Source: an uncultured Candidatus Saccharibacteria bacterium (GTDB taxonomy: Bacteria > Patescibacteriota > Minisyncoccia > Phycocordibacterales > UBA9973). Taken from it: 64,000 nt of DNA. A model generated the notes under the pieces. That model was not told the origin of the DNA and did not search any database. It saw only the letters and a list, made by a program, of their open reading frames with translations. How positions within the stretch are numbered: the stretch's first letter is position 1; each line of letters begins with the position of its first letter. Below, piece after piece: positions 1,902 through 64,000 of this stretch. The stretch lies in NCBI GenBank assembly GCA_964634365.1, contig CAZWJU010000002.1, positions 103,150 to 167,149 on the forward strand, written 5' to 3'. The position numbers and the translations under genes are program-made.

Positions 1902-3791
1902 TTATACACTGAATACATCTCTAATGTGTCCATCCTTCACTTCAAATGCTAGAGAAACAAAAACTTTTGTATATGTAGAATCTGCATTTTTCTTCTCTAT
2001 TGTCACATAATAATTTCCATTTGAAATCAAACAGTAGTAGTGGCCTCTCGCATCAGAAACCTTGTGAGTAATTTCTTGATTATTGGATACAGAATACACG
2101 CGCAGAATTGCATATGATAGAGGTAGTCCTGTTGCTTTGTCTACAATACCTCCAAGTTTATGATTCTTGTACCCTACCTCTCTCAAAATAAACAAAAGTA
2201 TATATAGAGCAAATATAATTATGTTGTATAAAACAGGCGAAACCAAAAAGGCAATAAATGCTATGAAGAAACCGGCAGCAAAAAGAGTGTCTGATATTTG
2301 TCTAAAAATAGCATCGCGTCTTGAATAAAACTTCATCAATTTCTGTTGTTTTTTAGCAAATTCATTCCAATCGAAGTTGATCGGATCCATAGGGATATTT
2401 TTTGTTATAGGAGAATTCTCTGTAACCTCCAAGTCTTCACCAAAATACAAGTCTTGATATAGTTCGTCTTTTTTCTGTCCTGCTAATTTTTCTGAAGGAA
2501 ACTTATAGTTAGTTTTATTGGCAACTATTTTATAAGTCCCACTAGGTACCAAAAATCCAAAACGCCCATCTAGATCGGTTATAGATGTAGAAACTTCAGT
2601 TCCATATTTGTCGTACAAAACAACATAAGCAGGATCAAGTGGCTGCTTTGTTATAGAGTCATATACAGTTCCCCATGGTGGACGACGTTTCGATAGACCA
2701 AAAGCTGCTAGTAGTAGTGACCACAATCTAAAAGGTATGAAAACAAGTTCAGAGAGCGAAAGTGGATTCATAAATAGCAGTGAGGCAATAGATATAACCG
2801 CACTGGTTGTCAAAGCAAAACCAGTAAAAATCTTTGTAGCAAGACCTCCACTTTCGCTGTTTATATAATCCTCTATTCCTCCTGGTATACCATCTGTAAA
2901 ATCAATTCCTCCGTCTGTAATACAATCAATTCCTACGCAAATCTCTGGATCTGTAGGTGGGGGTACACAATCAGCACCGACACAAGTCTCTGGAGGATTG
3001 CACTCTTCACCTACACAACCAATCGGCGCATAATCACAAGGTGATGGACTGCCATAGTTTGTTGCAAACAAATCTTCACAGATATTTTCTTCTTCCGGTG
3101 GATTACAATCTTCACCTACACAGCCAACTGGTGCATAATCACAAGGCGAAGGCCCACCAAAATTTGTTGCTGCAACATCAGAACAGATAGAGATTGTGTA
3201 AGTACAAGGCAGTGCTCCGCCATAGTTTGCTGCATTCGTATCAGAACATAAACTAGGAGGATTACCGCCTCCACCTCCACCCGTAGTATCTCCATCTCTA
3301 GCATCTTTAGGTCTCCAATCAGTTTTCACACAAGCATCAGCGACTCCACAATCAAACTGAATCCAACCATAGTTTTCGCTCCATGCAAAACCTACAAATT
3401 CCCCGTCCATATCTATATAAACTTCTTGTGTAGAACTATTCGAGAAAGGGCCGAAGTTTATCCAGCCAGCAGCCTCACCCCATGCATATCCAGAAAGCTG
3501 ACCTCGAGAAGAATCTGTGTCTGGATCATTCAATACACCTCCTGAGTTAGGATCTAAGTGAATCCATCCTAGACTAGGACCCCAGATATCTCCAGTTACA
3601 GCGTCATCAGTTATAAGAACATCTTCTGCGCCAGCATTGCCAGGAACAAGCCAGTAAATCAATTGGCCGTGTGTGTATATTTTTGAAGTATAACTATCTA
3701 CATCGATAGTACCCTCTTCTTCAGAAGCAACTGCAGAAAAAACATTTAGAAAAAATATTGATATTATAAATAAAAATAAAATTTTCTTCAT
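1902..3791 (-). CDS. Large secreted, membrane-anchored protein. N-terminal repeats AW(G/S)E..GWI.F, tandem Cys-rich repeats about 35 aa long, TM segments, and a C-terminal CarboxypepD_reg-like beta domain.
   Basis: Signal peptide MKKILFLFIISIFFLNVFSAVASE. Repeats GYAWGEAAGWINF / GFAWSENYGWIQFD. Tandem repeats ATNFGGPSPCDYAPVGCVGEDCNPPEEENICEDLF x2-3. Hydrophobic helices. C-terminal GTYKIVANKTNYKF-like beta-sandwich motif. Confidence 0.6.
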   Translation of the reverse strand: MKKILFLFIISIFFLNVFSAVASEEEGTIDVDSYTSKIYTHGQLIYWLVPGNAGAEDVLITDDAVTGDIWGPSLGWIHLDPNSGGVLNDPDTDSSRGQLSGYAWGEAAGWINFGPFSNSSTQEVYIDMDGEFVGFAWSENYGWIQFDCGVADACVKTDWRPKDARDGDTTGGGGGGNPPSLCSDTNAANYGGALPCTYTISICSDVAATNFGGPSPCDYAPVGCVGEDCNPPEEENICEDLFATNYGSPSPCDYAPIGCVGEECNPPETCVGADCVPPPTDPEICVGIDCITDGGIDFTDGIPGGIEDYINSESGGLATKIFTGFALTTSAVISIASLLFMNPLSLSELVFIPFRLWSLLLAAFGLSKRRPPWGTVYDSITKQPLDPAYVVLYDKYGTEVSTSITDLDGRFGFLVPSGTYKIVANKTNYKFPSEKLAGQKKDELYQDLYFGEDLEVTENSPITKNIPMDPINFDWNEFAKKQQKLMKFYSRRDAIFRQISDTLFAAGFFIAFIAFLVSPVLYNIIIFALYILLFILREVGYKNHKLGGIVDKATGLPLSYAILRVYSVSNNQEITHKVSDARGHYYCLISNGNYYVTIEKKNADSTYTKVFVSLAFEVKDGHIRDVFSV

Positions 3792-3801
3792 GAAGATTGA
3801 T

Positions 3802-4419
3802 TTAAAATCCAGTTAATACTCCAAACAGCCACAGTAAAATAGGCGAAACATACTTCCATATAAAAACAATAAAAAATATTAGTATCACTAACGCGAAACG
3901 CTCCATGAAAATTTCAACGTTTCTATATCTGGCTGGCAAAAATGCGAACAGGATCTTTGAGCCATCGAGCGGAGGGATAGGTATTAGATTGAAAATAAAT
4001 AAAACTAGATTTACTAAAACAATAGCTCCTAATATAGATACAAATGTACTACCAAAAACACCCGCTACCCCAAGTATTCTTATGACAATCGAAAATATAA
4101 CTGCTAGCGACAGGTTCGCCAATACTCCTGCAGAAGCCACAAAAACTGTACCCCATTTTTTATCTCGAAGATTGTTCGGATTGTATGGAACGGGCTTTGC
4201 CCAGCCAAACACAAAACCAGTATTTGATATAACTAACAAAAGAGGTATTAGAACTGAACCGATAGGGTCTAAGTGCTTGATTGGATTCAAGGTCAATCTA
4301 CCTGCTAGTCTTGCTGTTGGATCACCCAATTTTTCAGCTGCAAAACCATGAGCCACTTCGTGGACCACTACAGACATCAAAAGTATTAAAACATAAAAAA
4401 TTGCGTCTAGTTCTTGCAT
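3802..4419 (-). CDS. Site-2 protease family (peptidase M50) zinc metalloprotease
   Basis: HEVAHGF zinc-binding motif in the first TM, and a polytopic profile that includes NLIPIPPLDG. Confidence 0.8.
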   Translation of the reverse strand: MQELDAIFYVLILLMSVVVHEVAHGFAAEKLGDPTARLAGRLTLNPIKHLDPIGSVLIPLLLVISNTGFVFGWAKPVPYNPNNLRDKKWGTVFVASAGVLANLSLAVIFSIVIRILGVAGVFGSTFVSILGAIVLVNLVLFIFNLIPIPPLDGSKILFAFLPARYRNVEIFMERFALVILIFFIVFIWKYVSPILLWLFGVLTGF

Positions 4420-30625: not shown

Positions 30626-30663
30626 AAGTCCTTAGACTATAACATGTAAACAACATAACAGTA

Positions 30664-31052
30664 AAAATCTACAACCCGCCTCTGGCGGGTTTTTTTCTAA
30701 TCATTACTTTTTCAAAAAAGTAATGCAAAAATTTCTTTGCGTATAACTCTGTGTATATTCACGAAACTCGGACTCACTAAAAGTATTAACTCGGCTACCA
30801 CCTCAAACAGAATACTTTTTCCTAACGGAACGTTCGTCCTCGTTTGTTCATATATACACAGAGTTATAAGGCAAAGCTAGGGCCCAAATACACCAATCCA
30901 TACTTTTAAAAAGTCTTGCGCAGCCGGGCAGGCGAGCAGAGCAAAAATCTAGCAAGATTTTATGCGTGCTTTTTAAAAGTTATGGATAAAAGAAAGTTTT
31001 CCGGAAACTAGGCTCTGAGTTACTGTAGACGTGATGTGGGTTACAAAAACAA
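30664..31052 (+). repeat. Copy A of a multi-copy structured non-coding element of about 390 nt. It starts with an A-run + cccgcc-tctg-gcggg hairpin. Strand uncertain.
   Basis: About 80-90% identical to 38181-38580 and 56392-56760. No ORF. Compensatory base changes between copies; see findings. Confidence 0.75.
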
Positions 31053-31083
31053 TAAAAAATCCCCAGAGGGGATTTTTTATTGT

Positions 31084-31389
31084 TTATCCTATTTGATTCA
31101 TTACTGACATACTTTCTCTTTGAAATTTTTCTGCTTCTTCTTTTGCAATATTTTCGAAATCAGAAACATTTTCTCGCAAGAATCCAATTATCATCTCAGG
31201 AGATGCGTCTTTGTCTAGCATCTCTTCAAATTCTGACTGGAGATTCTCTGGCATACCATCCATAACTCTCATCAATATCCCTTGAAATATTAGTGAGCCA
31301 ATCCGCTCAATAATATCATTTTGCTCGTCTTCTGAAAGGGAGCTGAGATTATATGCATTTATAATTGTTTGACGTAATTTTTGATCCAT
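31084..31389 (-). CDS. Small acidic hypothetical protein
   Basis: 101-aa ORF followed by a terminator hairpin at 31058-31083. Confidence 0.5.
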   Translation of the reverse strand: MDQKLRQTIINAYNLSSLSEDEQNDIIERIGSLIFQGILMRVMDGMPENLQSEFEEMLDKDASPEMIIGFLRENVSDFENIAKEEAEKFQRESMSVMNQIG

Positions 31390-31411: not shown

Positions 31412-34400
31412 TTATTTTGCATTTTGTATCTCAGCTTTTTCCAACAATTCTATGTATTGTTGCAATCCCATACCAGACTGTGGAGGAATATCATATTTAT
31501 TTGCGATCTTTTCTATAGCATCCAACATTTTATTGATTGAATTTGTATCAGCTTTTGAAGCAGTTTCAATTATCTTTCCAGAAGCATCTTGGTAATTTCC
31601 ATCAAAATTTATTGAGTGATTAATATTACCCAATTCATCTGTTTCATATATTGAATCTGCTGGATAATTCTTCCAAATTTCCCATGTTCTTGTGTTAACA
31701 CCTTCAACAGAACTGTTATCTAGGTATTTATTTATGAAATCAGTAGTATTTTGTTGCACTTCTATAGATAGTTGGTCTGGAGTTACTTCTGGTGCATTTG
31801 GCGCACTTGCATCTACTGATACATCTGGTGTTTCAGGTGTATTTGCATCTGGGGCAGAAGCATCTATTGTTCCGCTACTGCCACCCATCTGACCTCCAGT
31901 ATTAGTATTTAAATCTATAAGCTTTCCTCCAGATAAAGGTGTGTTGTCTAGACCAGAAGCTCCCATTTGATTTTGGCCTATACCTGTAGCCGCATCAATA
32001 CTTCCACCCATCTGTCCAGAACCAGAATCTACTGTATCTGCAACACTTGGCTCTGCTTCTAGTGTTCCACCACTTTTTGTTCCGCGATAAATATACTCTG
32101 TATCATCTGGAGTTGCTTCAAACGGAGAACCTGCACTATGAGTTTCAATCAATTTTCCATCAATAAATTCTCTTACACCAAAACTTCCGTCTGGCATCTT
32201 TGTTATAACGTATGAAGAGTGTCCGATTGTGTCATATCCAAGTCGAAGTTCTGTACCATGGTTGAAATATCCTGTGCTGATAGCTAGTCTATGAGCTTCA
32301 CCTTGTGCAAAAGTATGCAAACTAGAACTTCCATCCCATCCCATAGAACGAGCCAAGTCTGGATCTGCTTCAATCTGACGTATAAACAAGTGCTCCACAC
32401 CATCTCCAGGTCGTACAGTAGCAAGAGGGTTTATAGTCTCAATCTCTGGCTCTGGTGGTGGAGTGTGATCAACAACTGGACCTGTGCTCTCGTTTGCATT
32501 TTCAGCAGCAAAGTGTCCCGCCATAAGACCCGCTCCAATGCTTGAACCCATTCTTATGCCGGCATTTATATAGCGATTTACTTTTTCCAATTTTTTCTTT
32601 TTCTTCAATTCTGCTCCAAATCTATCTTCTTGAGCCTTCAGCCATTCTTCGGAGAATTCTCCCTCTCCTGTGCCTTGGCCTAGTGCCTTTTTATTTTTCT
32701 CGAATCTCTTATCGATCTTTTTCTGACTAAAGAATAGACTTTTTAGTCCTATACCTGCCTCTCCTGCTAGTGCACCACCTACTACACGTGCACCAACACC
32801 AACCGCCACTCCTCCAAGTGCTGCCAAGCTTCCAGCAGAAAATGCTGCAACACCTGTTCCTATGGCAATAGATAGAGCTACGCGCTTGTATCTAGGTTTT
32901 ACCTTGCCGTACCATTGTAGTGCTTTTAGGAGCACACCCTGTTCTCTCTTTGGAAGTGCTTCTATTTTTTCCTGGGCTAGTATATCTCCTTCGTCTAAGA
33001 TAATTTTTCTAAACAAAGTACCGGATTTATATTCAGCGAGCGCTTGTGCCTTTTGTTCATCTGTTTGATTTGTCTTTTCAAGCCGAGCTTTTTCTCTTGC
33101 ATACAATTCATTACCAAAAATAACTTTAGCGCCTTCGTAATTCTTTTTAGCTTCGTTGTATGCTATTAGCTTTGCATTGTCTTCTGGTAAATCTTCGGTA
33201 GAAATCTTTTCACCGCCAATTTTTGCCCACATTTTTTGGAAGATATTACGCTTGCTCTTCATCACACTTTGTCGTTCAGAGAGCATCTCCTCATATGCTT
33301 TCATGTATGCATCACGTGAAGCATCAAGATTTTGTGAAGGTGACATTTCTTTCTCTTTATTCTTTTTCTCTGTATCTTCTAGAGGAGTTTCATCTTTTTC
33401 TTCTGACAAAATATCTTCTGGTTTTTGATCTTTAGATTCTTCTGTACCAGATGTTGATACAATCTCAAATGCATCACTTCTGAGCGCGCCCACCATCTCT
33501 CTTTCACTCTCTGATCTCTTTTCTCCAGTTTTGTTATTTTCAAATTCAAAAATCTTGTTACCATTTTTATCAGTAACAACTCTGATTAGAGTATATTCAT
33601 CTCCACTATCTCTACCTTTTACAACTGCTCCTATATCGAGGTCGTTTATAGTGTTTTTTATTGCTCCAATATCAATCTCTGGTCTTTCTATCTTTCCAAT
33701 ATTTTCACTTGGAGAATCTATAGCAACCTTGCCGAGACTAAACATACTAGCTAACTCTTTAGCAGAATATGTCATAACCTCACCATTTGCACGTTTTTCA
33801 AGTGTATATATTTTTTGTTTTTTCTTGCCTTTACCTTTGGTTTCAATATTTACAATATTTGCATATTCATCCTTTTCAACTCCGTATAAAACATCTCCTA
33901 TCGCAAGACCCTCTACACGAGCATCTGCACCCTCCTTTGTCATAGAAATGGAACTTTCTACTGGAGTTTTTTCTGTTTCTTCTTCTAAGTCAGGATTTTC
34001 AGTTTTATTAATTTCCCAAGTTTGACCAACAAGCTCTACGTTTGGATTCGATTCAAAAAACTTGCGAGTATCTTCTTCGTTCATAACTACAGGCGTCTTA
34101 CTCTTACCAGCTCTATATGAAACTTTTCCATTTTCTACTTTAACAATCTCGTATTTAAAAGAAGGTTTATCAGTATCTGCATACTCTTGGCCAGCCATAA
34201 TCTTTATTCCATTTCCAAGATCTAAAACATTTTCTGCTTTTATATCTTTATCTTCGTTTTTAGGTGCAGTTTTTTTGTTTATAGATTTTTTATCTATACC
34301 TAAACCAACTTTTCCAATCGCTCTTGCATAAAAAAGCTCTTTATCATTGTGAGAAGACCCATCGTCCAGATTGAAAGTTCTTACACCTCTTTTGCTTGTT

Positions 34401-34756
34401 GTGATACTTTGCACGATTCTTGTCTCTTTTGTCTGATTGAAATATAGAGGAGTGCCTTCTGTGATCTTGTCCAAAAATTTATTGGCTTCTTCGCGCACAG
34501 ACTCAGGTATAGCTTCTCTATCCTGTGTAGGCTTATCATCTTTTGCTTTTGTCTTTGCAGTAGACCTTGCTGAAGGTTTTTTACCAGACCCCGCTTTTGG
34601 TTCTGATTTTTTATCCTTTTCTAAAGCTCCAAGTATTTTATTTTTTAGATCACCCAACCCAGCTGAACTTTTTTCTATATCAACCTCAAGTTTTTTTGCT
34701 TGTTCCAAAAGCTCTTCATCAGTTAGTTTTTTTATTTCTGGCTCTTTTTCACTCAT
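31412..34756 (-). CDS. Very large hypothetical protein (1114 aa). Charged N-terminal half, a Gly/Ala-rich TM segment, and a GGQMGGS-repeat C-terminal region.
   Basis: Long uninterrupted ORF. Hydrophobic block ALSIAIGTGVAAFSAGSLAALGGVAVGVGARVVGGALAG. No catalytic motif recognised. Confidence 0.6.
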   Translation of the reverse strand: MSEKEPEIKKLTDEELLEQAKKLEVDIEKSSAGLGDLKNKILGALEKDKKSEPKAGSGKKPSARSTAKTKAKDDKPTQDREAIPESVREEANKFLDKITEGTPLYFNQTKETRIVQSITTSKRGVRTFNLDDGSSHNDKELFYARAIGKVGLGIDKKSINKKTAPKNEDKDIKAENVLDLGNGIKIMAGQEYADTDKPSFKYEIVKVENGKVSYRAGKSKTPVVMNEEDTRKFFESNPNVELVGQTWEINKTENPDLEEETEKTPVESSISMTKEGADARVEGLAIGDVLYGVEKDEYANIVNIETKGKGKKKQKIYTLEKRANGEVMTYSAKELASMFSLGKVAIDSPSENIGKIERPEIDIGAIKNTINDLDIGAVVKGRDSGDEYTLIRVVTDKNGNKIFEFENNKTGEKRSESEREMVGALRSDAFEIVSTSGTEESKDQKPEDILSEEKDETPLEDTEKKNKEKEMSPSQNLDASRDAYMKAYEEMLSERQSVMKSKRNIFQKMWAKIGGEKISTEDLPEDNAKLIAYNEAKKNYEGAKVIFGNELYAREKARLEKTNQTDEQKAQALAEYKSGTLFRKIILDEGDILAQEKIEALPKREQGVLLKALQWYGKVKPRYKRVALSIAIGTGVAAFSAGSLAALGGVAVGVGARVVGGALAGEAGIGLKSLFFSQKKIDKRFEKNKKALGQGTGEGEFSEEWLKAQEDRFGAELKKKKKLEKVNRYINAGIRMGSSIGAGLMAGHFAAENANESTGPVVDHTPPPEPEIETINPLATVRPGDGVEHLFIRQIEADPDLARSMGWDGSSSLHTFAQGEAHRLAISTGYFNHGTELRLGYDTIGHSSYVITKMPDGSFGVREFIDGKLIETHSAGSPFEATPDDTEYIYRGTKSGGTLEAEPSVADTVDSGSGQMGGSIDAATGIGQNQMGASGLDNTPLSGGKLIDLNTNTGGQMGGSSGTIDASAPDANTPETPDVSVDASAPNAPEVTPDQLSIEVQQNTTDFINKYLDNSSVEGVNTRTWEIWKNYPADSIYETDELGNINHSINFDGNYQDASGKIIETASKADTNSINKMLDAIEKIANKYDIPPQSGMGLQQYIELLEKAEIQNAK

Positions 34757-34783: not shown

Positions 34784-36700
34784 TTATAGACCTCTTTTTT
34801 TAATCTCTTCTTTTAATTTTTCCAACAAATCTTTCTTCTCTTTGAGATTCTCTTCCTCTATCTCAACTGTTTTTAAAAGTATACCAAGATATTCCCTTTT
34901 TGTGACTCTGTCTTCTGTGATATCTTCGGATTTGTATTCTCTACGTTCGGAATATTGAAAATCTTTTAATTTGTCTTTTGGGATATCTCTAGGGGGATTG
35001 TCTTTGTTGTATCGTGTCTTTTTATAGTGCGTATAGGTATACAAAGTTCGTCCTTCAAATACAGTAAAAGGGTGTTTGATTATAAATTCATTTTCTCCTC
35101 TTACAGGCAAGATAAAATCACCCTGCTCAAAAGAAATTTGGGCTTCTTCTATAAAACGCTTTATTTGAGCTTCAATTATACTTTCTTTGTTTTCATATTT
35201 TAAAAGATCCTTGAGTTTATTTCTTTTATCAAAAATTTCTTTTTGTAAATTATCCTTCAGGGCATGCTCATCTCTTGTTTTCGGTGATTTCAAACCTCTA
35301 AGTTGCTTTTCCAGTTCGTCTATATCATCTGCCAATGAATCTATGAATCCCTGAGACTCTCTTTTTATTTCAGGATTTTCATCTGTAGTAGGGATAAATT
35401 CTCCAGAAGAAATCATTTCCCCAAACTCTTTATTGCTTATTTTTTTAACCACATTTTTACCTGTAGCGTAATTAAAAGGCCCTTCTAGTAAGACAAAGTC
35501 TTTGTTTTCATAAAAATCAAACCCCTCTTCTTTATTTAAATCTACAGGTTCTTCTTCAGAACGGATCGAATCAACAACTCTAAATATTGTTCCAGTTTTT
35601 TTATCTAAAAATTTTTCTCCTCTATATACTTTAATATCAGAATCTTTATATGGACTATTTTTTTCAAGAATAGATGTCAACTTATCAAAAATAATATCTG
35701 CATTTAATCCAATACCTTTGTCATCAGAGACAATATCTTTGAATTTTGAACTGTTTTGATTCTTTTCTCCTTTTCTAATTATTTCTTGCTTTCTATCTTT
35801 TGATAGACTCTTGATTTGCTTCTTTGTCCAACCAAGTTCCATAAGCGCATTGACCTCTTTCATTGCTTCAATCTGTTCGGTATTTCCTACACCTTGATCC
35901 TCTTGGTTATCGTCATCCTCTCCTATAGAATCCAAATTTAAGTCTTCTAAATTTTTAATCACCTTTGTAGGTTTTTTATTTTTTACAGATGCACGAATAC
36001 TTTTAACTGATGGTTTTTCTTCAACAGACTCTTCTGTTGATACTTCTTCTCCAGAATTATCTTTGTCTATTGTATTTCCATCCGCAACTTCATCTGCAAT
36101 ATCTTCCGACGCACTTTCTTTTGTTTCAATACTGTGTGTTTTCATGTATTTATCTACAATAGAAACAATAGAAGATATCATGGATTCGTCTTTTGTATGT
36201 ATTTCATTTTGAATTTCTTTTTGAATTGAAGATATTTGACCTGCCTCAAAAGACTCAATTATCTTCTTTATCTTTTTACGATCAGCTACTTTTATTTTTT
36301 TTGAAGAAGCTTCAATCTCTTCAATCAATTCACTAGCATCAAAAATCCCAACTGGGATTTCTGTGTCTTCTTCTTGTTCTGGGCCAGAGATATTTTCTGC
36401 TCGTTCTATTGAACCATTCATATCAATAGAGCCTACTATATTATGACTTCTCATATATTCATTGAACGCATCTGCAATCAGCGAAGCTTCATCTTTTGTA
36501 AGCTTTCCGGAATTTCGAAGTATCACAAGAATTCTTTTTATAGATTCTGGGTCTTTGTTTTTAGAAAATAAGGCTATAGGCTTCTCTAGTCTTGATTTGA
36601 TAAAAAGATAGTTTGAAATATCCTTTAAAATTTGCTCGTCCAAATAGGCTATGATTTGAATAGGGTTAATATCTGAAACCTTTGGGGGTTGTTCTGACAT
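34784..36700 (-). CDS. Large acidic hypothetical protein (638 aa)
   Basis: Long ORF of Glu/Lys-rich, low-complexity segments. No motif recognised. Confidence 0.55.
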   Translation of the reverse strand: MSEQPPKVSDINPIQIIAYLDEQILKDISNYLFIKSRLEKPIALFSKNKDPESIKRILVILRNSGKLTKDEASLIADAFNEYMRSHNIVGSIDMNGSIERAENISGPEQEEDTEIPVGIFDASELIEEIEASSKKIKVADRKKIKKIIESFEAGQISSIQKEIQNEIHTKDESMISSIVSIVDKYMKTHSIETKESASEDIADEVADGNTIDKDNSGEEVSTEESVEEKPSVKSIRASVKNKKPTKVIKNLEDLNLDSIGEDDDNQEDQGVGNTEQIEAMKEVNALMELGWTKKQIKSLSKDRKQEIIRKGEKNQNSSKFKDIVSDDKGIGLNADIIFDKLTSILEKNSPYKDSDIKVYRGEKFLDKKTGTIFRVVDSIRSEEEPVDLNKEEGFDFYENKDFVLLEGPFNYATGKNVVKKISNKEFGEMISSGEFIPTTDENPEIKRESQGFIDSLADDIDELEKQLRGLKSPKTRDEHALKDNLQKEIFDKRNKLKDLLKYENKESIIEAQIKRFIEEAQISFEQGDFILPVRGENEFIIKHPFTVFEGRTLYTYTHYKKTRYNKDNPPRDIPKDKLKDFQYSERREYKSEDITEDRVTKREYLGILLKTVEIEEENLKEKKDLLEKLKEEIKKRGL

Positions 36701-38129: not shown

Positions 38130-38580
38130 TTCGAAAGAAAAAATCCCCTCCGGGGATTTTTTCTTTTATTTAAAATAAAAATCTACAACCCGCCTCTGGC
38201 GGGGTTCATTTTTTAATCATTACTTTTTTAAAAAAGTAATGCAAAAACTTCTTTGCATGTATGAAAAATCTAGCTCACAACACGATAGCTCGTTAAAAAT
38301 ATTAACTCGCCCCGCAGGCTCAAAGCGGGGCTCAAACAGAATATTTTTTACTCCGTAACACTCGCTCTCGTGTGTTCACTTACGATTTTTCATGCAAGGC
38401 AAAGCTAGGGTTCAAATACACCAATCCATACTTTTAAAAAGACTAGCGAGTGTGGCGACACGAGCTCGAGGAATTTTCTAGCAAGAAAATATCCGTGCTT
38501 TTTAAAAGTGATGGATAAAATAAAGTTTTCCGGAAACTAGACTCTGAGTTACTGTGGACGTGATATGGGTTACAAAAAAC
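38130..38580 (+). repeat. Copy B of the structured non-coding element. Includes a shared upstream terminator hairpin.
   Basis: ttcgaaagaaaaaatcccctccggggattttttc + atctacaacccgcctctggcgggg... Collinear with copies A and C. Confidence 0.75.
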
Positions 38581-38598
38581 AAAAACCCTTACGGGTTT

Positions 38599-39708
38599 CT
38601 ATTTCAAAGCTTTTATTCCAGGAAGCGTCCCTTTAGCCAAAAATTCTAAAGTAGCACCACCACCAGTAGAAACAAAAGTAAATTTATCTTCCATTTTCAT
38701 CTTGGACACAAGCGCAACCGTATCACCACCACCAATTATTGTCTTCGCTTTTGATTTAGCCAAGATTTTCAGTAGAGCAACAGTACCGTGATCGAAACCT
38801 GCTTCGTACTCTCCTGTCGGACCGTTCCATAGGACAAATTTTGATTTTTTTATTAGTATTTCAAACTCTCTTATTGTTCTATCTCCTATATCTACAATCT
38901 TATCCATCTTGCCCACCTCATCTATGCCTTTGGTTAGTCTTCCCCCGTCTTTACCAGTAACCACAACATCGACAGGTAACAGTAGTTTTGGATTGTTTAT
39001 TATTTTACTTATTCCATATTCTCCTTTTTCTACGAGAGATCTACCGACTTCAAAAGAAGCTTCTTTGAAAAAGTTGTTCATCAGCGCACCTGTAACCACT
39101 ACTCTATCTGCATCCTTTAGAAACTTTTTTATGAGAGGCATCTTTGTATCAAACTTTGCTCCACCTAAAATAAATAAAAATGGTCTTTTAGGTTTGTCTA
39201 GAACAATTGATAAGTTTTTAATTTCTTTTTCAAATTGAAATCCAACATATGATGGTAAGTATTTTGGAATCCCGACAATAGATGCGTGTTCTCTATGTGA
39301 AACCGGGAAGGCTTCATTTACATAAATATCAGCAAAACTAGCTAGATGTTTTGCAAATTTAGAATAATTTTCTTTTTCACCGATTTGTCGACGAATATTT
39401 TCTAGCAAAACAATTTCCCCTTTTTTTAGATCAATAGATTTTGGAACAGGTCCATCTATAAACCTAACTTTTATATGTTTATTTAAAAATTTTGCGACAG
39501 GTAAAAGTGTCTGTGCATCTTTTTGTAAATCAGAATGAGATACGAGTATTATCGAAGCTCCTTTTTTTTGTAGATACTGTATTGTAGGAAGTGCTTTTAA
39601 TATTCTAGTAGAATCTATTATTTTATCTCCTTCGATCGGAACATTAAAATCTGTTCTCAATAGAACTTTTTTACCTTTTAAATTTTTAATACTTTTTACT
39701 GATTTCAT
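38599..39708 (-). CDS. pgk: Phosphoglycerate kinase
   Basis: KGKKVLLRTDFNVP N-terminal motif, and the GGGA/GGGD C-terminal domain motifs. Confidence 0.85.
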   Translation of the reverse strand: MKSVKSIKNLKGKKVLLRTDFNVPIEGDKIIDSTRILKALPTIQYLQKKGASIILVSHSDLQKDAQTLLPVAKFLNKHIKVRFIDGPVPKSIDLKKGEIVLLENIRRQIGEKENYSKFAKHLASFADIYVNEAFPVSHREHASIVGIPKYLPSYVGFQFEKEIKNLSIVLDKPKRPFLFILGGAKFDTKMPLIKKFLKDADRVVVTGALMNNFFKEASFEVGRSLVEKGEYGISKIINNPKLLLPVDVVVTGKDGGRLTKGIDEVGKMDKIVDIGDRTIREFEILIKKSKFVLWNGPTGEYEAGFDHGTVALLKILAKSKAKTIIGGGDTVALVSKMKMEDKFTFVSTGGGATLEFLAKGTLPGIKALK

Positions 39709-55264: not shown

Positions 55265-56329
55265 ATGATTATAAAAGTTACAAAGCTAGAAAAAAGCCAA
55301 GTTGAAATAGAGGGCACTATACCAGAAGAAAAATTGTTGAGCTATGAAAAGAGTATTGTGGATGCAATGCTGAAAGATTTTGAAATACCAGGTTTTCGAA
55401 AAGGTAAAGTCCCTGAAGCAATGTTCCGAAAAGAGATTTCTGATATGACAATCCTAGAAGAAATGGCAGAGCGCGCTATCGGCGATGAGTACCCGAAAAT
55501 ACTAGAGAGTGAAAAGATTGATGCTATTGGCCGCCCTGAAGTCATAATCACAAAACTTGCTCGTGGAAATGCACTCGAATTCAAGATCAAGACTGCAGTA
55601 CTCCCAGAAATAAAACTTCCAGACTACAAAAAGATTGCTCGTGAAGAGATGTCAAAAAGTGAGAGCGTCGATGTAACTACAGAAGAAGTAGACAACGCTC
55701 TACTAGAACTTCGTAAAATGAAAGCTCACCAGGCTTTACATGAAAATATGAAAGAGGGAGAGGAGGCTAGCCACGATCACAATCATGAAGAGCTAAATGA
55801 TGAAAAAAATCTTCCAGAACTAAACGATGAATTTGCAGCTTCACTAGGAGATTTTAAAACAGTCGCAGAGCTTCGTGCAAAAATAGAAGAAAACATGGCT
55901 TTAGAAAAAGCAAACAAAGCTCATGAAAAGAAACGTATCGCTGTTATGGAGAGAATAATCGATGAGGCTAAAATAGATGTTCCAGAAGTATTTATTGAAG
56001 CAGAGCTTCGAAAAATGATGTCTCGTATGGAAATAGATATCGCAAACATGGGTCTAAAAATAGACGACTATCTAGCTCATGTAAAAAAGACTCGCGAAGA
56101 TCTTATGAGTGAATGGAGAAAAGACGCAGAGCGTAGAGCAATCTTAGAATTATCAATAAGTGAGATTGCTAAAATTGAAAATATAAAATCTGAAAAAGAG
56201 GAACTTGATAGAGAAGTGAAAAAACTTCTTGAAAACTATCCAGACGCTGACCCACTTCAAGCAGAATTGTATGTAGACAATGTGCTTAGAAATGAAAAAG
56301 TATTTGTGTTTTTTGAGAATCAAAAGTAG
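55265..56329 (+). CDS. tig: Trigger factor (short form, 354 aa)
   Basis: N-terminal ribosome-binding domain with GFRKGKVP, then a PPIase-like region. Confidence 0.8.
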   Translation: MIIKVTKLEKSQVEIEGTIPEEKLLSYEKSIVDAMLKDFEIPGFRKGKVPEAMFRKEISDMTILEEMAERAIGDEYPKILESEKIDAIGRPEVIITKLARGNALEFKIKTAVLPEIKLPDYKKIAREEMSKSESVDVTTEEVDNALLELRKMKAHQALHENMKEGEEASHDHNHEELNDEKNLPELNDEFAASLGDFKTVAELRAKIEENMALEKANKAHEKKRIAVMERIIDEAKIDVPEVFIEAELRKMMSRMEIDIANMGLKIDDYLAHVKKTREDLMSEWRKDAERRAILELSISEIAKIENIKSEKEELDREVKKLLENYPDADPLQAELYVDNVLRNEKVFVFFENQK

Positions 56330-56335
56330 AATCAG

Positions 56336-56820
56336 TTCGAAAGAAAAAATCCCCTGGAGGGGATTTTTTCTTTTATTTTAAATAAAAATATACAACCCGC
56401 CTCTGGCGGGTTGTATTGTATTTTAAATATTACTTTTTCAAAAAAGTAATGCAAAAACTTCTTTGCATGTATCAAGAAAGACACTCACAAAACTCGGACT
56501 CACTAAAAGTATTAACTCGGCCACTACCTCAAACAGAATACTTTTTCCTGTCGGAACGTTCGTCCTTGTTTGTTCGTGTATATTTCTTGAAACAAGGCAA
56601 AGCTAGGGCCCAAATATAACCAATCCATACTTTTAAAAAGTCTTGCGCAAGGTCGACGGGCCGAGCAGAGCAATTCGCTAGCAAGCGAATATGCGTGCTT
56701 TTTAAAAGTTATGGATAAAATAAAGTTTTCCGGAAATTGGACTTTGGGTAGCCAATAAAAAAGATGAAGTTGTTTTGAAAAAGTAATGATTAAAAAAATG
56801 AACCCCGCCAGAGGCGAGTT
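56336..56820 (+). repeat. Copy C of the structured element. It carries terminal inverted repeats; the 3' end mirrors the 5' hairpin region.
   Basis: The 5' end cccgcctctggcggg...attactttttcaaaaaagtaat and the 3' end gaaaaagtaatgattaaaaaaatgaaccccgccagaggcg are mutually reverse-complementary. Confidence 0.75.
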
Positions 56821-56864
56821 ATTATTAACTATTCCCTTATCCCTTATCACTATTCCCTAAAATA

Positions 56865-56905
56865 AAAACCCCGTAGATTACTCTACGGGGCCGGGCTGGC
56901 AAAAG
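56865..56905 (-). terminator. Rho-independent terminator for the lipoprotein gene
   Basis: On the minus strand: ccccgtagagtaatctacgggg followed by tttttatttt. Confidence 0.6.
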
Positions 56906-56918
56906 CCCTAACCAAATA

Positions 56919-57584
56919 TTATTCTCCGGCGTCCACTGACGGCTCCGGACTCGATGCATCTACCACATCTCCGAGATTGGTTGTGGTCTCTGAAACCACT
57001 TTTCCTTTCTCTTTGATGATGGTGATTACCTCGTAATCCTTTGCCGTGAAGCAAGGGTGGAGATCTTTGGCTGCAATCTCCTTCTTTGCCGGCTTCGGCT
57101 CATCCTTTACTACAGGAGCCGGTTCAACTTTTTTTACCGGTGCCGGGTTTTCAACCACAGGAGCGGGAGGAGTTGATTCCTCCTTTTCGCAATCACACGG
57201 AGCGGGCTCCGTTTTTGTGATCACTCCGAACTCTACGATTTCAAACTCTGTGTGCTGGCCGTTGTACCATATTGGATGGATTAGACGCACCTTAACCCAA
57301 ACCCTGTTGTGGTTAGCAACAAGATTATTAAGTTTGGTGGCACGATCTTTGTCTTCATCCTCCATACGGGCATAACTTACTTTATTGTCCCCGCACAACT
57401 TAAATGGCATACTCAGCTCATCAAATGCAATTCCGTACATTTCACCGGAAAAATTAGCAATATTAGCATTTGATGTTGAGGGCTGATTATTCATTTCTGC
57501 AGAATCCCTTTTACCGGAATCCCCACAAGAGGTCAGCACAGCCATAAATAAAACAGTAAATAAAGAAATGAAACCTATCTTCAT
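56919..57584 (-). CDS. Lipoprotein with a Pro-rich linker. Hypothetical. Markedly higher GC than its surroundings.
   Basis: Lipobox LTSCG. Local GC about 48% against about 35% for the neighbourhood. Inserted between tig and clpP. Confidence 0.6.
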   Translation of the reverse strand: MKIGFISLFTVLFMAVLTSCGDSGKRDSAEMNNQPSTSNANIANFSGEMYGIAFDELSMPFKLCGDNKVSYARMEDEDKDRATKLNNLVANHNRVWVKVRLIHPIWYNGQHTEFEIVEFGVITKTEPAPCDCEKEESTPPAPVVENPAPVKKVEPAPVVKDEPKPAKKEIAAKDLHPCFTAKDYEVITIIKEKGKVVSETTTNLGDVVDASSPEPSVDAGE

Positions 57585-57763
57585 ATTTATTGGTTTTATT
57601 GTGAATTCAATATAGAACTTTTACTCACGTAGTATAGCACATATACCCCCCATTTGTCAAGCCCTCCCGTACCCCCTATTTTTCTGTTATAATCTCAATA
57701 GTTTATAGGATTTCTTTGTATTTTTACTAAAACCTAACACCTATAACCTTAAACCTATCCAAT

Positions 57764-58348
57764 ATGTTAATCCCAACAGTCCTCGAAAAATCCCAATTTG
57801 GCGAACGCGCATACGATATTTACTCTCGCCTGCTAAAAGAGCGTATTATTTTCCTAAACGATGAGGTGAACGACTACACTGCAAACTTAGTTATTGCTCA
57901 GCTTATCTTCCTTGCTCACGAAGATCCAAAAAAAGATATTCAGCTATACATAAACTCTCCAGGAGGATCAGTTACAGCTGGTATGGCGATATATGACACA
58001 ATGCAATTCATAAAACCAGACGTTACTACTATATGTGTTGGTATGGCAGCATCTATGGGAGCAGTGCTTCTCGCTGGTGGTGCAAAAGGCAAACGTTTTG
58101 CTCTTCCAAACTCTCGCATGATGATCCACCAAGTACTCGGTGGCGCTGAAGGTCAGGCAAGTGACGTTGAGATTCGTACACGCGAACTATTACGTATGAA
58201 AAAAATGTTGAACGAACTTCTTGCAAAACACACAGGACAAAAACTAGCAAAAGTTGAAGCCGACGCTGACCGAGACTATTTTATGACAGCCGACGAAGCA
58301 AAAAAATACGGTCTTATAGATGAAGTAATCACAAAAGCTAAGATATAA
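57764..58348 (+). CDS. clpP: ATP-dependent Clp protease proteolytic subunit
   Basis: [27 protein letters not shown] Ser site, and MIHQ His. Confidence 0.9.
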
Positions 58349-58365
58349 ATACAATATCAAAATAA

Positions 58366-58392
58366 AAAACCCGCCTAGCGGGTTTTTTATTT
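58366..58392 (+). terminator. Rho-independent terminator after clpP
   Basis: aaaaaacccgcc-tagc-gggttttttat. Confidence 0.65.
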
Positions 58393-58410
58393 AATTGGTG
58401 TATTTAGAAT

Positions 58411-58620
58411 CCTTGGAGCCTAACTTTGCCTTGTAGATTTACATATCTAGACGAACGCAAATAGTGTTTCAAAAGACTCTGTGTAGTGCGACGGCGCGAA
58501 ACAAAGAAAATTTATAGCAGTAAATTTTCGTGTCTTTTGAAACACTATTAAGTGAGTTGTTTTTTGAAAAAGTAATAGTTAAACAAGTAAAGAAAAATTC
58601 CGCTTTGCGGAATTTTTCTT
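58411..58620 (+). repeat. Partial, diverged copy D of the structured element. It holds the conserved three-way-junction core plus a 3' hairpin.
   Basis: tagtgtttcaaaagact...aaaatttaTAGCAGtaaatttt...gtcttttgaaacacta aligns with the core of copies A-C, with compensatory changes. Confidence 0.6.
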
Positions 58621-58763
58621 TGAATTTTTAATACATAAACTACCGAGCGTATTCTATTACTCTCGCCTCTCGAATCAAGGTTACCCCGGTACGAAAATTG
58701 CACAGCGAATGCCTGTGCAATTTCATACGGGGCGAGACGTGGTAAATTTATTTTTTGTGATTT

Positions 58764-60290
58764 CTATCTTGCATACTCAATTACCCGAGTTTCTCTAATC
58801 AGGGTGACTTTTATTTCACCTGGATATTTCAATTCAGACTCTATTTTCTTTGCTATCTCACGAGCCATCTCTTTTGCTTCTACATCACCGACTTTTTCAG
58901 GAGTTACAAAAAGTCGTATCTCGCGACCAGCTTGGAGTGCATAAGATTTTTCTACACCTTCAAACTGATTTACAAGAGCTTCAAGTTCTGCAAGTCTGCG
59001 CAAGTAGTTTTCGACACTATCACGTCTTGCACCAGGTCTTCCGCCAGATATATAGTCTGCTGTTTGTACTATCACAGCTTCTAGTGTTTCGTGTGGGCAG
59101 TCATCGTGGTGAGATTTCATAGCTTGTATAACGCGTGGATCAGCACCAAATTTCTGCAAGATTCTGATACCGATATCTATGTGTGTACCTTGAACCTCAT
59201 GGTCTAGGGCCTTACCTATATCATGTACAAGCGCACCAGCTTTTGCTATCTGCACATCTGCACCGAGCTCTTCGGCTATCATGCCCGCGATGTGAGTCAT
59301 CTCAATTGAGTGTTGAAGTACGTTTTGTCCATAACTTGTTCGGAAATATAGACGTCCGATTATGGCTACTATACGAGGATCGAAGTTGAATATTCCACAT
59401 TCGTACACTGCTTGCTCACCCTTCTCTTTGATAATTTTATTTATATCTTCTTTTGCCTTATCTACCATTTCTTCGATCTTTGCAGGTTGGATACGTCCAT
59501 CGAGGATTAGGTTCTCAAGTGCAAGTCTTGCTATCTGTCTCCTAACTGGATCAAAACTAGATATTACAATAGTTCCAGGTGTGTCATCTACGATTAGCTC
59601 TACTCCGGCTGCACGCTCAAACGCTCTGATGTTTCGTCCTTCCTTTCCAATTATCTTTCCTTTGATTTCATCGTTTGGAATAGAAACGTTTGTCGCCATC
59701 AGTTCAGCTGCAGTAGAAGATGCTAGTCTTTGGATTGATGTTGCGAGTATTTCTTTTGCGCGTCCATCGAGTTTCTCCTGACCTGATTGTTCGAGCTTCT
59801 GGATTCTAACAAGTAAATCTTCTTCATAATCTTTTTCGATAGTAGTCATGAGCTCTGCTTTTGCATCTTCGCGAGTTAGTCCGGCTACACGCTCAAGCTC
59901 TTTGTGTTTTGTTTCTTCTAGCTCAACTGTTTTTTCTTTGATTTTTTTGATCTCTTCAACTTTGAGTTTTATATTCTCAACCTCTTTGTCTATTTCGGTT
60001 TGGCGAGCATCTAAAAGCTCCTCTTTTTTGATAAGGCGCTTTTCAGTTTCTTTGAACTCTATTTCGCGATTTTTCTCTTCCCTTTTTAGTTCTTCGTCAC
60101 GCTCCTCAGCTTTCTTTTTTGCTTCGTCTATTATTCTTTGCGCTTCCTCTTTTGCAGAGATCAATATCTTTTTGATCTCAAGCTCCATTGAACCCTTTTG
60201 TCCGAGGGCTATGATTAGTCGGAGATAATATCCGACTGCAACACCTACGACTAGTGCTAGTCCTAGGAATGCCAATAAATGTAAATTCAT
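58764..60290 (-). CDS. rny: Ribonuclease Y
   Basis: N-terminal TM, coiled coil, KH domain (GKIIGKEGRNIRAFE) and HD domain (HSIEMTHIAG...LVHDIGK). Confidence 0.9.
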   Translation of the reverse strand: MNLHLLAFLGLALVVGVAVGYYLRLIIALGQKGSMELEIKKILISAKEEAQRIIDEAKKKAEERDEELKREEKNREIEFKETEKRLIKKEELLDARQTEIDKEVENIKLKVEEIKKIKEKTVELEETKHKELERVAGLTREDAKAELMTTIEKDYEEDLLVRIQKLEQSGQEKLDGRAKEILATSIQRLASSTAAELMATNVSIPNDEIKGKIIGKEGRNIRAFERAAGVELIVDDTPGTIVISSFDPVRRQIARLALENLILDGRIQPAKIEEMVDKAKEDINKIIKEKGEQAVYECGIFNFDPRIVAIIGRLYFRTSYGQNVLQHSIEMTHIAGMIAEELGADVQIAKAGALVHDIGKALDHEVQGTHIDIGIRILQKFGADPRVIQAMKSHHDDCPHETLEAVIVQTADYISGGRPGARRDSVENYLRRLAELEALVNQFEGVEKSYALQAGREIRLFVTPEKVGDVEAKEMAREIAKKIESELKYPGEIKVTLIRETRVIEYAR

Positions 60291-60562
60291 GTAATCTTCG
60301 TCTGCTTACGATAGTAGTTTCGCTTTTTGAGTGATTTCTATTTGAATTTTAGTATTTTGATGATTCATATCAGAGCTTTGCAGAAATATTTTCTCACACA
60401 CTTCGCGTCTAAAATCTGGTAAGTAGGTAAATTGTTTATAAGTTCGATGTCTCCATATTAGCACACCTTTTTCATTGTGTCATTGATATTCTTGACATAG
60501 TACATATTCAGTTATACTTTATAGACATTAAAAATCCGCCTCGTTAGCAAGAGGCGGATTTT

Positions 60563-60943
60563 TTAATTTGTCTGAGATTCGTCTTCTTCCTGCAAGACTT
60601 TTTCTATCTTTGCACTATGAGTTCCCTTGTCTATACCAAGTATTATCATACTAGCACCCATACCAATCATAGATACTGCTAGTATTCTATATGCTATTAA
60701 AATTTCTTTTATTGTCTCTGGCGGAAGACTGTCTATATTTTGCGCTAGAGTAGAATGTTCACCAAAAACTCTTTTTGCTACAAATGAACCAGCAATTACA
60801 GCAAAAACACCCGCCCATGTTGCTGGTTTTTTTAAGATTTCTTTTATTTTTAAAATAGTTTCTGGTTTTGCATTTTCAACCTTTTCCATGAAAATATCTT
60901 TCTCGCTTTTTTCTATTGGTGTATTTATATTTTCTTTTTCCAT
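60563..60943 (-). CDS. Small membrane protein, hypothetical
   Basis: Two TM helices. 126 aa. Confidence 0.5.
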   Translation of the reverse strand: MEKENINTPIEKSEKDIFMEKVENAKPETILKIKEILKKPATWAGVFAVIAGSFVAKRVFGEHSTLAQNIDSLPPETIKEILIAYRILAVSMIGMGASMIILGIDKGTHSAKIEKVLQEEDESQTN

Positions 60944-60945
60944 AT

Positions 60946-61105
60946 TTTACTTGTTGTCTTCATCTAATATATTTTCAATCTCTTTCATTGCATTTAGAGC
61001 AAGTTCCTCTATCGCAGCCTTTTCTGATTCGGTCGCAGTACCCTGCTTTATCTTTTCGACCATAGCTTCGTATTCTTCTTTTGTGTATTTTATTTCGTCT
61101 TGCAT
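60946..61105 (-). CDS. Small acidic protein, about 52 aa. Hypothetical. Approximate coordinates.
   Basis: ATG...MQDEIKYTKEEYEAMVEKIKQG... read from the minus strand; too short to appear in the provided ORF track. Confidence 0.3.
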
Positions 61106-61140
61106 ATTTTTTATTTTACCATATTTAAAAAAATGAAATA

Positions 61141-61440
61141 AAAAAAACCCGCAGAACTATTGTCTGCGGGGCGGGTCCACGGCGTGGGACCCTGTTTTTT
61201 GCCGGGGGGGGTCATGACTTCCTCCTGGCTCTCTTTTTTGGCCCAGTCGCTTCCGGTTATGGAAGTCTTCCTTTCGAAAGACTTCGGCGTAGTGCGACGG
61301 ATCGGGCCTCTGTTGTGCCCCGGCTCTTGGCCTAGCCCCTATCCTTTCGGTAGGGGGGCGGGCTCTGGCACGGGGGCTTCCGGCGTTTTAGACGTCCTTT
61401 ATCGACGCATAGGTAGTATAGCACAGTGACTAATCTTTGT
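61141..61440. ncRNA. GC-rich structured non-coding segment. It appears to be a divergent fifth member of the repeat-element family; strand uncertain. A minus-strand terminator sits at 61141-61175.
   Basis: GC far above the local background. GNRA-capped hairpin gaagtcttt-c-GAAA-g-gaagacttc. Shares tttcgaaagact + tagtgcgacgg with copy D and ccgg...tagacgt with copies A/B. No credible ORF. Confidence 0.45.
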
Positions 61441-61600
61441 CAAGCCCCTTATGCTTATCCTTCCGAGTATACCTGGCTTTATCTTTATGTGTCTTCCCTT
61501 TCATGTTTACTCCTGCAAATACATTTCGAGACATCTCTCTGCTTTCCTTTGCGAGATCATGTTTCACAACAATACGGATATTTTTCTTTTTCTTGCTCAT
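61430..61600 (-). CDS. Small Lys-rich basic protein (56 aa), hypothetical
   Basis: MSKKKKNIRIVVKHDLAKESREMSRNVFAGVNMKGKTHKDKARYTRKDKHKGLDKD. Not in the ORF track because it is under 60 aa. Confidence 0.35.
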   Translation of the reverse strand: MSKKKKNIRIVVKHDLAKESREMSRNVFAGVNMKGKTHKDKARYTRKDKHKGLDKD

Positions 61601-61659
61601 AATTTTTTATTTTAAAAAATTAAACGAAAAAAGAAGGGATTACTCCCCTCTTTAAAAAA

Positions 61660-63877: not shown

Positions 63878-64000
63878 GGTGATTCATTTGGTGAAATGGG
63901 GTTTCTAGAATTACCCCGTTCCACCAAATGAATTATTTTTATAAAGAACTTACTTTCTACCAAGCCGCAATCGAAATTGTAGTCTGGATAAAAAGGGCAA

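Follow-up and report, generated by a model that had tools for sequence, protein, structure and literature searches.

Candidate composite non-coding repeats with covarying folds in a Nomurabacteria-like lineage of Patescibacteria

Within a 64,000-nt stretch of a patescibacterial chromosome (contig CAZWJU010000002.1, positions 103,150 to 167,149; hereafter the window), a non-coding repeat occurs in three collinear, intergenic copies (A, 30662-31085; B, 38176-38603; C, 56383-56826) that are 76-79% identical in pairs by blastn and alignment; with D, a partial copy, the 64 kb contain three full copies and one partial copy. The full element is a composite of two separable modules, a ~160-nt 5′ domain and a ~130-nt 3′ domain that stand back to back, with long helices, hypervariable arms and a conserved multi-loop core. 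Our leading interpretation, which remains tentative and in our estimate falls a little short of an even chance, is that these copies represent a new, lineage-restricted family of composite non-coding interspersed repeats, nearest to BOX and BIME elements in kind, larger and more ornate, in which the folds of the modules are constrained.

Anatomy of the modules and covariation of their helices

On the plus strand, the parts run in the order terminator (T1 or that of a neighbouring gene), hairpin H1, 5′ domain, linker, 3′ domain, and tail with terminator. The 5′ domain has a CTTTGC/GCAAAG clamp, a hypervariable helix of ~17 bp and a conserved core bearing two hairpins; the linker is AAGGCAAAGCTAGGG..AAATACACCAAT, with an optional insert of ~12 nt; the enclosing helix of the 3′ domain is accompanied by a variable, GC-rich apical hairpin and by a bulged-A hairpin with a TAGCAA or CAGCAG loop; and the tail reads ..AAAGTTTTCCGGAAAC..GACGTGATRTGGGTTAC and then the terminator. 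In C, D and the related contig L089, an inverted half copy of H1 and a terminator take the place of the tail, which gives C a terminal inverted repeat of 48 nt. The gaps that hold the elements are rich in terminators and lie at gene 3′ ends, in most cases where two genes converge. Genes in the window are densely packed, with nine gaps of at least ~250 nt, six of which measure 300-590 nt; five of these six are occupied by A, B, C, D and a GC-rich locus, E (61141-61440), described below. As the initial annotation had stated, the copies are collinear and carry no conserved open reading frame (ORF): we found chance ORFs only, of at most 47 aa in A and B and 108 aa in C, and the last has no homologue among 5.8 billion proteins.

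To quantify the pairing, we described each half by a covariance model of its own, R1 for the 3′ domain on the right and R2 for the 5′ domain on the left, both home-made and with approximate E-values, and counted pairs in alignments fitted to the model (eight sequences for the 5′ domain and nine for the 3′ domain, from closely related genomes of one genus-level clade). In the 5′ domain, 95.3% of cells are paired, compared with 79.6% in 500 shuffles, and 27 of 52 pairs have changed on both sides; in the 3′ domain, 96.2% are paired, compared with 78.6%, and 26 of 38 pairs have changed on both sides. None of the 500 shuffles reached the observed pairing, and slid 3′ partners pair at 53% at most. 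The three helices singled out by the initial annotation do covary, with double-sided changes at seven of the 10 pairs of the TAGCAA-loop hairpin (R1 helix 3, 100% paired), 13 of the 19 pairs of the enclosing helix (R1 helix 1) and 23 of the 38 pairs of the upstream long-range helix (R2 helix 1). When only copies A-C are considered, RNAalifold identifies 30 pairs changed on both sides, on either strand; entire 17-bp arms differ among copies and are still complementary, as is visible by eye. Folding of A is far stronger than that of shuffled sequence on each strand (z = -5.9 and -5.4), and the fold z of D is -6.35. Because pairing is kept through many double changes, beyond both the shuffled and the slid controls, some folded single-stranded form, either RNA or single-stranded DNA (ssDNA), is constrained or actively maintained.

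The proposal of a conserved structure thus stands, but the same annotation had drawn it as a single element of 390-490 nt, and a single RNA of that length it is not, because the modules are separable and prefer opposite strands. Modules occur apart or rearranged: contig L088 has just the 5′ domain and D just the 3′ domain, contig L090 has a head-to-head pair of 3′ domains, and genome L087 has a deletion derivative.

Copy A begins at its left end with T1, a terminator-type hairpin found by a terminator scan of both strands (AACCCGCC-TCT-GGCGGGTT, 30673-30691), followed by the AT hairpin H1 (30702-30725, CATTACTTTTT-CA-AAAAAGTAATG), an end module with 10 invariant pairs by RNAalifold; neither was assigned a strand, nor were their counterparts in B and C. 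T1 is kept in A, B and C together with 11 nt of flank, and H1 adjoins the terminator in every copy read, with an inverted half copy at the right ends of C and D. The 5′ domain of A (30732-30892; R2, 186.9 bits) is predicted on the minus strand, which folds better by 7.5 kcal/mol, and comprises the outer clamp, the hypervariable 17-bp helix and a core with three TC/TC 2x2 loops. Its 3′ domain (30888-31017; R1, 146.5 bits), on the plus strand, which is 3.9 kcal/mol more stable, contains the enclosing helix CCATACTTTTAAAAAG/CTTTTTAAAAGTTATGG, the GC-rich variable apical hairpin, the TAGCAA-loop hairpin and a TTTCCGGAAA hairpin. The sequence and the terminator scan place the tail (..GACGTGATGTGGGTTAC) and a bidirectional terminator common to the DUF5663 gene at 31018-31085, with no strand assigned; the tail motif is found again in B, in a further copy termed F, in L001 and in L087. 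A blastn search with copy A returned only a terminator of Escherichia phage N15 among phages, and nothing among plasmids. This annotated rho-independent terminator is identical to T1 at 26 of 26 positions (30670-30695), most likely, judging by its generic sequence, through convergence.

Copy B (T1 at 38187-38206 and H1 at 38218-38241) starts right after the terminator of an M23 peptidase gene (38134-38167). Its 5′ domain (38248-38420, minus strand, 7.5 kcal/mol more stable; R2, 159.2 bits) has an extra 13-nt hairpin in the apical loop, and its 3′ domain (38416-38546, plus strand; R1, 138.3 bits) is followed, up to 38599, by the tail and the terminator AAACCC-TTAC-GGGTTT, which overlaps the PGK stop codon and also stands after copy F in CP064973. 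In copy C, T1 (56390-56416) and H1 (56428-56451) precede a 5′ domain at 56458-56618 (minus strand, 8.5 kcal/mol more stable; R2, 186.2 bits) and a 3′ domain at 56616-56746 (plus strand, 8.5 kcal/mol more stable; R1, 148.6 bits); the inverted half-H1 and T1 at its right end (56773-56820, no strand assigned) form the terminal inverted repeat with the left-end type. Beyond this repeat, the C insert extends for ~40 nt (56821-56859) that are themselves repetitive (TTCCCTTATCCCTTATCACTATTCCCT). The initial annotation had placed B and C at the right loci with coordinates that took in a neighbouring gene's terminator.

D was rightly described there as a partial copy, and R1 matches it at 58452-58578 on the plus strand with 54.7 bits (E ~5e-10). 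This 3′ domain stands alone, followed by the inverted half-H1 (58560-58586) and, by terminator scan, the rny terminator (58588-58622). On its other side, adjoining the clpP terminator, nhmmer places an inverted linker block on the minus strand (AAGGCAAAGTTAGG..AAATACACCAATT, 58395-58434), and the family profile aligns, through its left half, with 58587-58394 in the reverse direction (E = 1.5e-5). The flanks of D are thus inverted relative to its hairpin module, and the same flanks enclose a 5′ domain in L088.

Gain, loss, inversion and exchange among relatives

Exact-pattern scans with three conserved motifs gave no match in public genome, metagenome (scanned twice) or viral contig collections; relatives were located through look-up of neighbouring proteins. 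In L001, a Logan contig with 87-93% identical DNA, site C is empty: the tig terminator lies directly before the terminator of the 221-aa gene, and the whole C insert (56389-56859) is absent. L084, a Logan contig with ~90% identical DNA, carries a diverged version of the right end of A at the same site. The complete Nomurabacteria genome CP064973.1 (L087) has F, a full two-domain copy that directly follows the rny terminator; its tig site holds a deletion derivative. At the rny/clpP site, the ENA contig L088 carries a 5′ domain only, 91-97% identical to that of A with the variable helix included. Two further Logan contigs add the head-to-head pair of 3′ domains (L090) and a 3′ domain followed by an inverted half-H1 and terminator (L089).

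The contig JAGOTF010000003.1 (L094), from a metagenome-assembled genome (MAG), has elements at both orthologous sites A and B, on the opposite strand. Comparing L094 3600-3990 and 11125-11480 with window 30662-31085 and 38176-38603, we found that the elements are inverted in place and that their 3′ domains are swapped between the sites; the 5′ domains belong to the window lineages by their variable arms, with TATGACCCTGTGTATAT in L094 matching TATAACTCTGTGTATAT in the window and the partner arm changing too. Orientation is uniform within each contig set (L094-L103; L083 and L085) and differs between lineages. Logan contigs of the window's own strain stop inside elements, as expected for a repeat, which indicates that the repeat breaks short-read assemblies of these genomes. 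We found no further copy in the ~4.4 kb past the right end of the window (contig L092). Two side observations concern these sites: site B in L094 lies between two identical 25-nt terminators (AAAAAATCCGCAAAGCGGATTTTTT), and in L001 (2266-2709 and 2959-4485) the clpP/rny gap holds a 147-aa gene with no Pfam match in place of D, with rny on the clpP strand rather than on the opposite strand as in the window, a local rearrangement at the element site.

The modules are also better conserved than synonymous sites. In seven flanking genes, four-fold degenerate sites are 54% identical between the window and L094, and 5′ domains at the same site are 82-86% identical at site A and 76-82% at site B (paired and unpaired columns taken separately); between the window and CP064973, the 5′ domain is 74-78% identical against 57-68% for neutral sites. 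A different history is likely for the 5′ domains of A and L088, which lie at different loci: their identity exceeds that of the four-fold sites of three neighbouring genes (62-89%), pointing to recent copying between loci or genomes. On these genome comparisons, the copies appear to behave like a recombining or mobile repeat, and we infer that they would spread by copy-to-copy recombination, through gain and loss, in-place inversion and domain exchange between loci.

The same polymorphism of presence and orientation could come from a non-autonomous DNA element that moves as ssDNA, in the style of REPINs or IS200/IS605 palindrome derivatives (PMC2817692, PMC3337134), with its enzyme encoded elsewhere and its hairpins needed in the intermediate. 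Such an element would account for near-perfect Watson-Crick helices and strand-symmetric mismatches in the 5′ domain, hairpins at both ends, the terminal inverted repeat of C, lodging beside hairpin-type targets (the terminators) and the close match between A and the L088 copy at another locus. We nevertheless regard it as quite unlikely: no transposase, Y1/HUH enzyme or TnpB was seen among the ~40 window proteins scanned, the ends are inconsistent (H1 in some copies, the tail in others), repetitive extragenic palindromic (REP) sequences measure 20-40 nt rather than 130-160 nt with conserved loops, recognition of ends does not account for conserved internal loops, and pairing-keeping changes are seen between same-site copies of two genomes. 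In the filled and empty states of site C, AAATAAAAA (9 bp) is present on both sides and once, respectively; it is A-rich and could be there by chance, and 40 nt extra lie beyond the right inverted repeat.

A more deflationary explanation is that the elements are functionless palindromic DNA whose arms are kept complementary by template switching or intrastrand gene conversion, making the compensatory changes a mutational artefact. Template switching in replication can create and repair perfect stems in one event, without selection (PMC8794818), which fits helices that are ~96% Watson-Crick, 5′ domain A.C mismatches as frequent as G.U pairs, and arms replaced as a whole instead of pair by pair. 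It leaves unexplained the unpaired cores, 76-86% conserved against 54% for neutral sites, the asymmetric features (the bulge, the TC/TC loops and loop sequences) kept in at least three genomes, and a recognizable relative in Kaiserbacteria, and we consider it very improbable. The helices of this repeat do illustrate that covariation alone is no proof of an RNA gene.

That relative is the one exception to a narrow distribution: the family is confined to one Nomurabacteria-like clade, a single distant 3′ domain relative apart. Searches with nhmmer and both covariance models found it at none of 80 clpP loci of other bacteria, other Patescibacteria included, save one 3′ domain match, and it is absent from the locus of a 69%-identical M23 homologue. 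The match (L074 8470-8592, Kaiserbacteria MAG contig MFLV01000011.1) scores 33.8 bits, with a roughly calibrated E of 4e-4 over 1.35 Mb. It is GC-richer and follows rny directly on the same strand, no terminator being evident between them. It has the CAGCAG-loop hairpin with the bulge and the GC-rich apical hairpin, and its enclosing helix contains a G.U pair and a G.A/A.G tandem on that strand. Elements also stand downstream of rny in five Nomurabacteria-like genomes (the window, L001, L087, L088 and L089). Together, these positions suggest that the 3′ domain may have begun as an rny-linked structure, an origin at the rny 3′ end that we offer as a lead from gene order and not as a result.

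This link raises the alternative that the element is a cis structure of the 3′ region of rny, the RNase Y gene, controlling mRNA stability or serving as a substrate or decoy of RNase Y, which was duplicated in one genus and joined to a second module. The recurrent position immediately downstream of rny, and the fact that the sole distant R1 match in 1.35 Mb of other loci directly follows rny on the same strand, favour this view. Yet the element lies on the rny strand in L087 and L074 but on the other strand in the window, L089 and L001, L088 has the 5′ domain alone at rny, five other Patescibacteria rny loci (RNase Y 75-81% identical) gave no model match, and the Kaiserbacteria match is one sequence with a roughly calibrated E-value; we judge this reading distinctly unlikely.

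Strand preference and possible modes of action

The two modules favour opposite strands. Fold energies favour the minus strand for the 5′ domain in 7 of 7 copies, by 7-14 kcal/mol, and the plus strand for the 3′ domain in 8 of 8, by 0.5-8.5 kcal/mol. Three conserved 2x2 loops in the 5′ domain read TC/TC on the plus strand and form 5′-GA-3′/3′-AG-5′ tandems in a CGAG context on the minus strand. A 5′-GA-3′/3′-AG-5′ tandem in this context is a classic sheared G.A RNA motif. Fold energies and tandem G.A loops thus argue for two modules of opposite polarity. Mismatch counts alone do not decide the strand: G.U outnumbers A.C by 5 to 1 in the two main helices of the 3′ domain, and the 5′ domain has 5 G.U against 7 A.C.

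The surroundings of the modules follow the same polarity. Downstream of each module on its better strand come H1 or the tail and, after it, a T-tract terminator. In D, at the right end of C and in L089, the 3′ domain on its better strand precedes the same inverted half-H1 and terminator that follow the 5′ domain on its own better strand. The rny/clpP site holds a 5′ domain in L088 and a 3′ domain in the window, with better strands in the same frame, and both modules lie between the same inverted linker and the same H1-terminator. Such polarity would suit transcripts and is no proof of them.

Expression signals are sparse, and by canonical signals the copies show no sign of being independent genes. 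We found no canonical (sigma-70-type) promoter in A-D or in the 30-70 nt between modules by a consensus scan and a strict pattern, non-canonical types lying outside both; the strict motif is found at four other places in the window, where 0.27 would be expected. Only the long-linker copies (D, L088, F and L094-B) have a TAGAAT or CAGAAT box. Terminators lie on the appropriate side of each module. With no recognized promoter in the copies, transcription would come by read-through, from an unrecognized promoter, or not at all.

In our preferred interpretation as BOX-like repeats, the constrained part would be the folded form of each module, most likely in a read-through transcript of the flanking genes that ends at the far terminator, and the fold would act in cis as a 3′-end structure or insulator. 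We hold with no more than moderate confidence that the elements would act as RNA in cis at gene 3′ ends, a model that draws on position and fold; any benefit to the host would likewise be a prediction from sequence.

Several observations weigh against this interpretation. The helices are ~96% Watson-Crick and G.U does not exceed A.C in the 5′ domain (5 against 7), so that a DNA-level process fits as well as RNA; a strand-symmetric mismatch spectrum of this sort is atypical of RNA. The elements have terminators on either side, their orientation relative to rny varies as described above, and no clean ends define a transposition unit, with terminal inverted repeats in C only. The shuffle control overstates significance, because it involves eight or nine sequences per domain from closely related genomes. 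Conserved unpaired cores and three tandem G.A-type loops, finally, exceed the needs of a passive 3′-end structure or a selfish repeat.

An alternative is that the modules are genes of two new classes of trans-acting structured RNA, paralogues that would be transcribed divergently from the centre to the outer terminators, with hypervariable helices as structural spacers or specificity determinants. The better strand of each module runs through H1 or the tail to an intrinsic T-tract terminator, loops and junctions are conserved as stems covary, tandem G.A motifs are typical of structured RNA, and identity is well over neutral. However, A-D have no sigma-70-type promoter, and other non-coding units of this genome have a perfect TTGACA-N17-TATACT; the TAGAAT/CAGAAT linker box is present in only some copies; modules are lost, inverted and swapped among close relatives, which is unusual for needed genes; and the variable arms have no 12-mer match elsewhere in the available sequence. 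We therefore consider such genes unlikely. A bolder version, in which the modules are new functional RNA classes whose hypervariable helices serve as programmable specificity elements, guide-like or bridge-like, or as mimics of RNase Y substrates, in an undescribed RNA-directed mobility or regulation, is in our view a long shot.

Patescibacteria have genomes of ~0.7 Mb with little spare DNA and few known repeats or non-coding RNAs, so a repeat that fills most of the large gaps in the window is conspicuous. Dozens of double substitutions have left its elaborate fold intact, and it is far better conserved than synonymous sites even as it flips and exchanges parts. Should the fold act as RNA, the modules would be two new classes of RNA in a phylum in which even housekeeping RNAs go undetected; should it act as DNA, the repeat would be a non-autonomous element of a new type, in organisms regarded as poor in mobile DNA.

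Known families and other features of the window

The initial annotation had found no known RNA family by key motifs, and our Rfam scans agree: the whole window has no match at gathering thresholds, E-value scans of copy A and of 56200-61700 returned only terminator-type chance matches well under gathering scores, and scans of related loci gave nothing. BOX elements are modular stem-loop repeats that are enriched downstream of genes and transcribed with their neighbours (PMC3049150). Like those of Streptococcus pneumoniae and S. suis, the elements described here are non-coding, modular, built of stem-loops, placed 3′ of genes, restricted to a narrow clade and without a transposase of their own (PMC3049150), and their separable modules occur in different permutations (L088, D, L090 and the L094 exchange). 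Unlike BOX, whose units measure ~45-60 nt in pneumococci and 115-133 nt in S. suis (boxE/F), they have modules of 130-160 nt, conserved loops in multi-branch cores, hypervariable and perfectly paired arms, opposite strand preferences, and a low copy number in the sequence seen; the likeness drawn here is one of kind.

With REP, BIME and REPIN sequences, they share extragenic palindromes at gene 3′ ends, mosaics of alternating orientation, non-autonomy and persistence in a lineage (PMC2817692, PMC3337134). REPs, however, are simple 20-40 nt hairpins in tens to hundreds of copies, with no counterpart to multi-branch structures of 130-160 nt and their elaborate conserved loops, and no RAYT-like gene is present among the window proteins. 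In being small, non-coding and polymorphic in presence, the elements resemble miniature inverted-repeat transposable elements (MITEs) such as Correia elements, a likeness strengthened in C by its 48-nt terminal inverted repeats; A, B and F end in a different tail, most copies lack such repeats, no clear target duplication and no parent IS were found, and helix arms vary here, while the ends are the conserved part of a MITE. HEARO (the omega RNA of IscB), TnpB omega RNA and IS110 bridge RNA, all linked to mobile elements, and the ornate RNAs ROOL and GOLLD are similarly multi-copy, covarying, intergenic and a few hundred nucleotides long. Unlike these, the present elements have no Rfam match, no IscB, TnpB or IS110 nearby, no guide-like arm match and no promoter.

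Several specific candidates were rejected. A group IIC intron could be considered for copies that sit just after terminator hairpins; no group II model matches inside the copies (domain V/VI none), no GUGYG follows the terminators, and the sole D1-D4 listing (E = 3.7) lies within the coding region 57066-57160. An inverton was set aside, given no promoter, no recombinase in the window and uniform orientation within contig sets; site B moreover lies between convergent genes, leaving nothing for an inverton to switch. An attC site has the wrong size and no integrase was seen among the window proteins, and a guide-like role of the variable arms found no 12-mer match elsewhere within the 64 kb searched.

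Locus E, which the initial annotation had counted as a divergent copy, proved to be a separate GC-rich non-coding unit of ~270 nt on the minus strand (61140-61443), and we rejected it as a family member. It has its own promoter on the other strand, a perfect TTGACA-N17-TATACT (61443->61415), a terminator (61170->61148) and a fold z of -4.1, and it matches neither R1 (filters off) nor R2 nor Rfam. Its only likeness to D is a local ~27/32 nt on the plus strand, read by eye, so that an E transcript would be complementary to the D plus strand there. A syntenic counterpart with the same promoter type and a terminator lies at L087 6066-6345 (CP064973.1).

The window itself is ordinary chromosome of a patescibacterium (Paceibacteria or Nomurabacteria-like; GC 31-44%), with housekeeping genes for UvrD, KsgA, PGK, TIM, type IV pilus, NusA, pyrophosphatase, trigger factor, ClpP, RNase Y, ComEC and RecJ; the best species-representative match of its ClpP, at 74% identity, comes from a Nomurabacteria MAG. 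Among the ~40 window proteins scanned, we found no transposase (Y1/HUH included), integrase, reverse transcriptase, RAYT-like gene, TnpB, IscB, IS110 or recombinase, and ARAGORN reported no tRNA or tmRNA in the window. Just past position 64000, L092 shows a 1.1-kb gene-free gap, equivalent to L087 3474-4365, with two divergent non-coding units at ~3290-3650 (minus strand, ~300 nt) and ~3763-4300 (plus strand, ~500 nt), both of which carry a terminator and a perfect TTGACA-N17-TATACT and have no Rfam match. Diverged RNase P, tmRNA or other housekeeping RNAs are possible identities, as are unknown RNAs.

Two adjacent genes (31412-34756 and 34784-36700) encode proteins of 1114 and 638 aa with no Pfam domain, 72% and 63% identical to their L094 orthologues, compared with 93-94% for neighbours; these fast-evolving proteins may, by their sequences, be surface proteins. 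Two tandem units of ~96 nt at 2989-3189, 76% identical, lie within a 629-aa gene with a CarboxypepD_reg domain and are an internal protein repeat.

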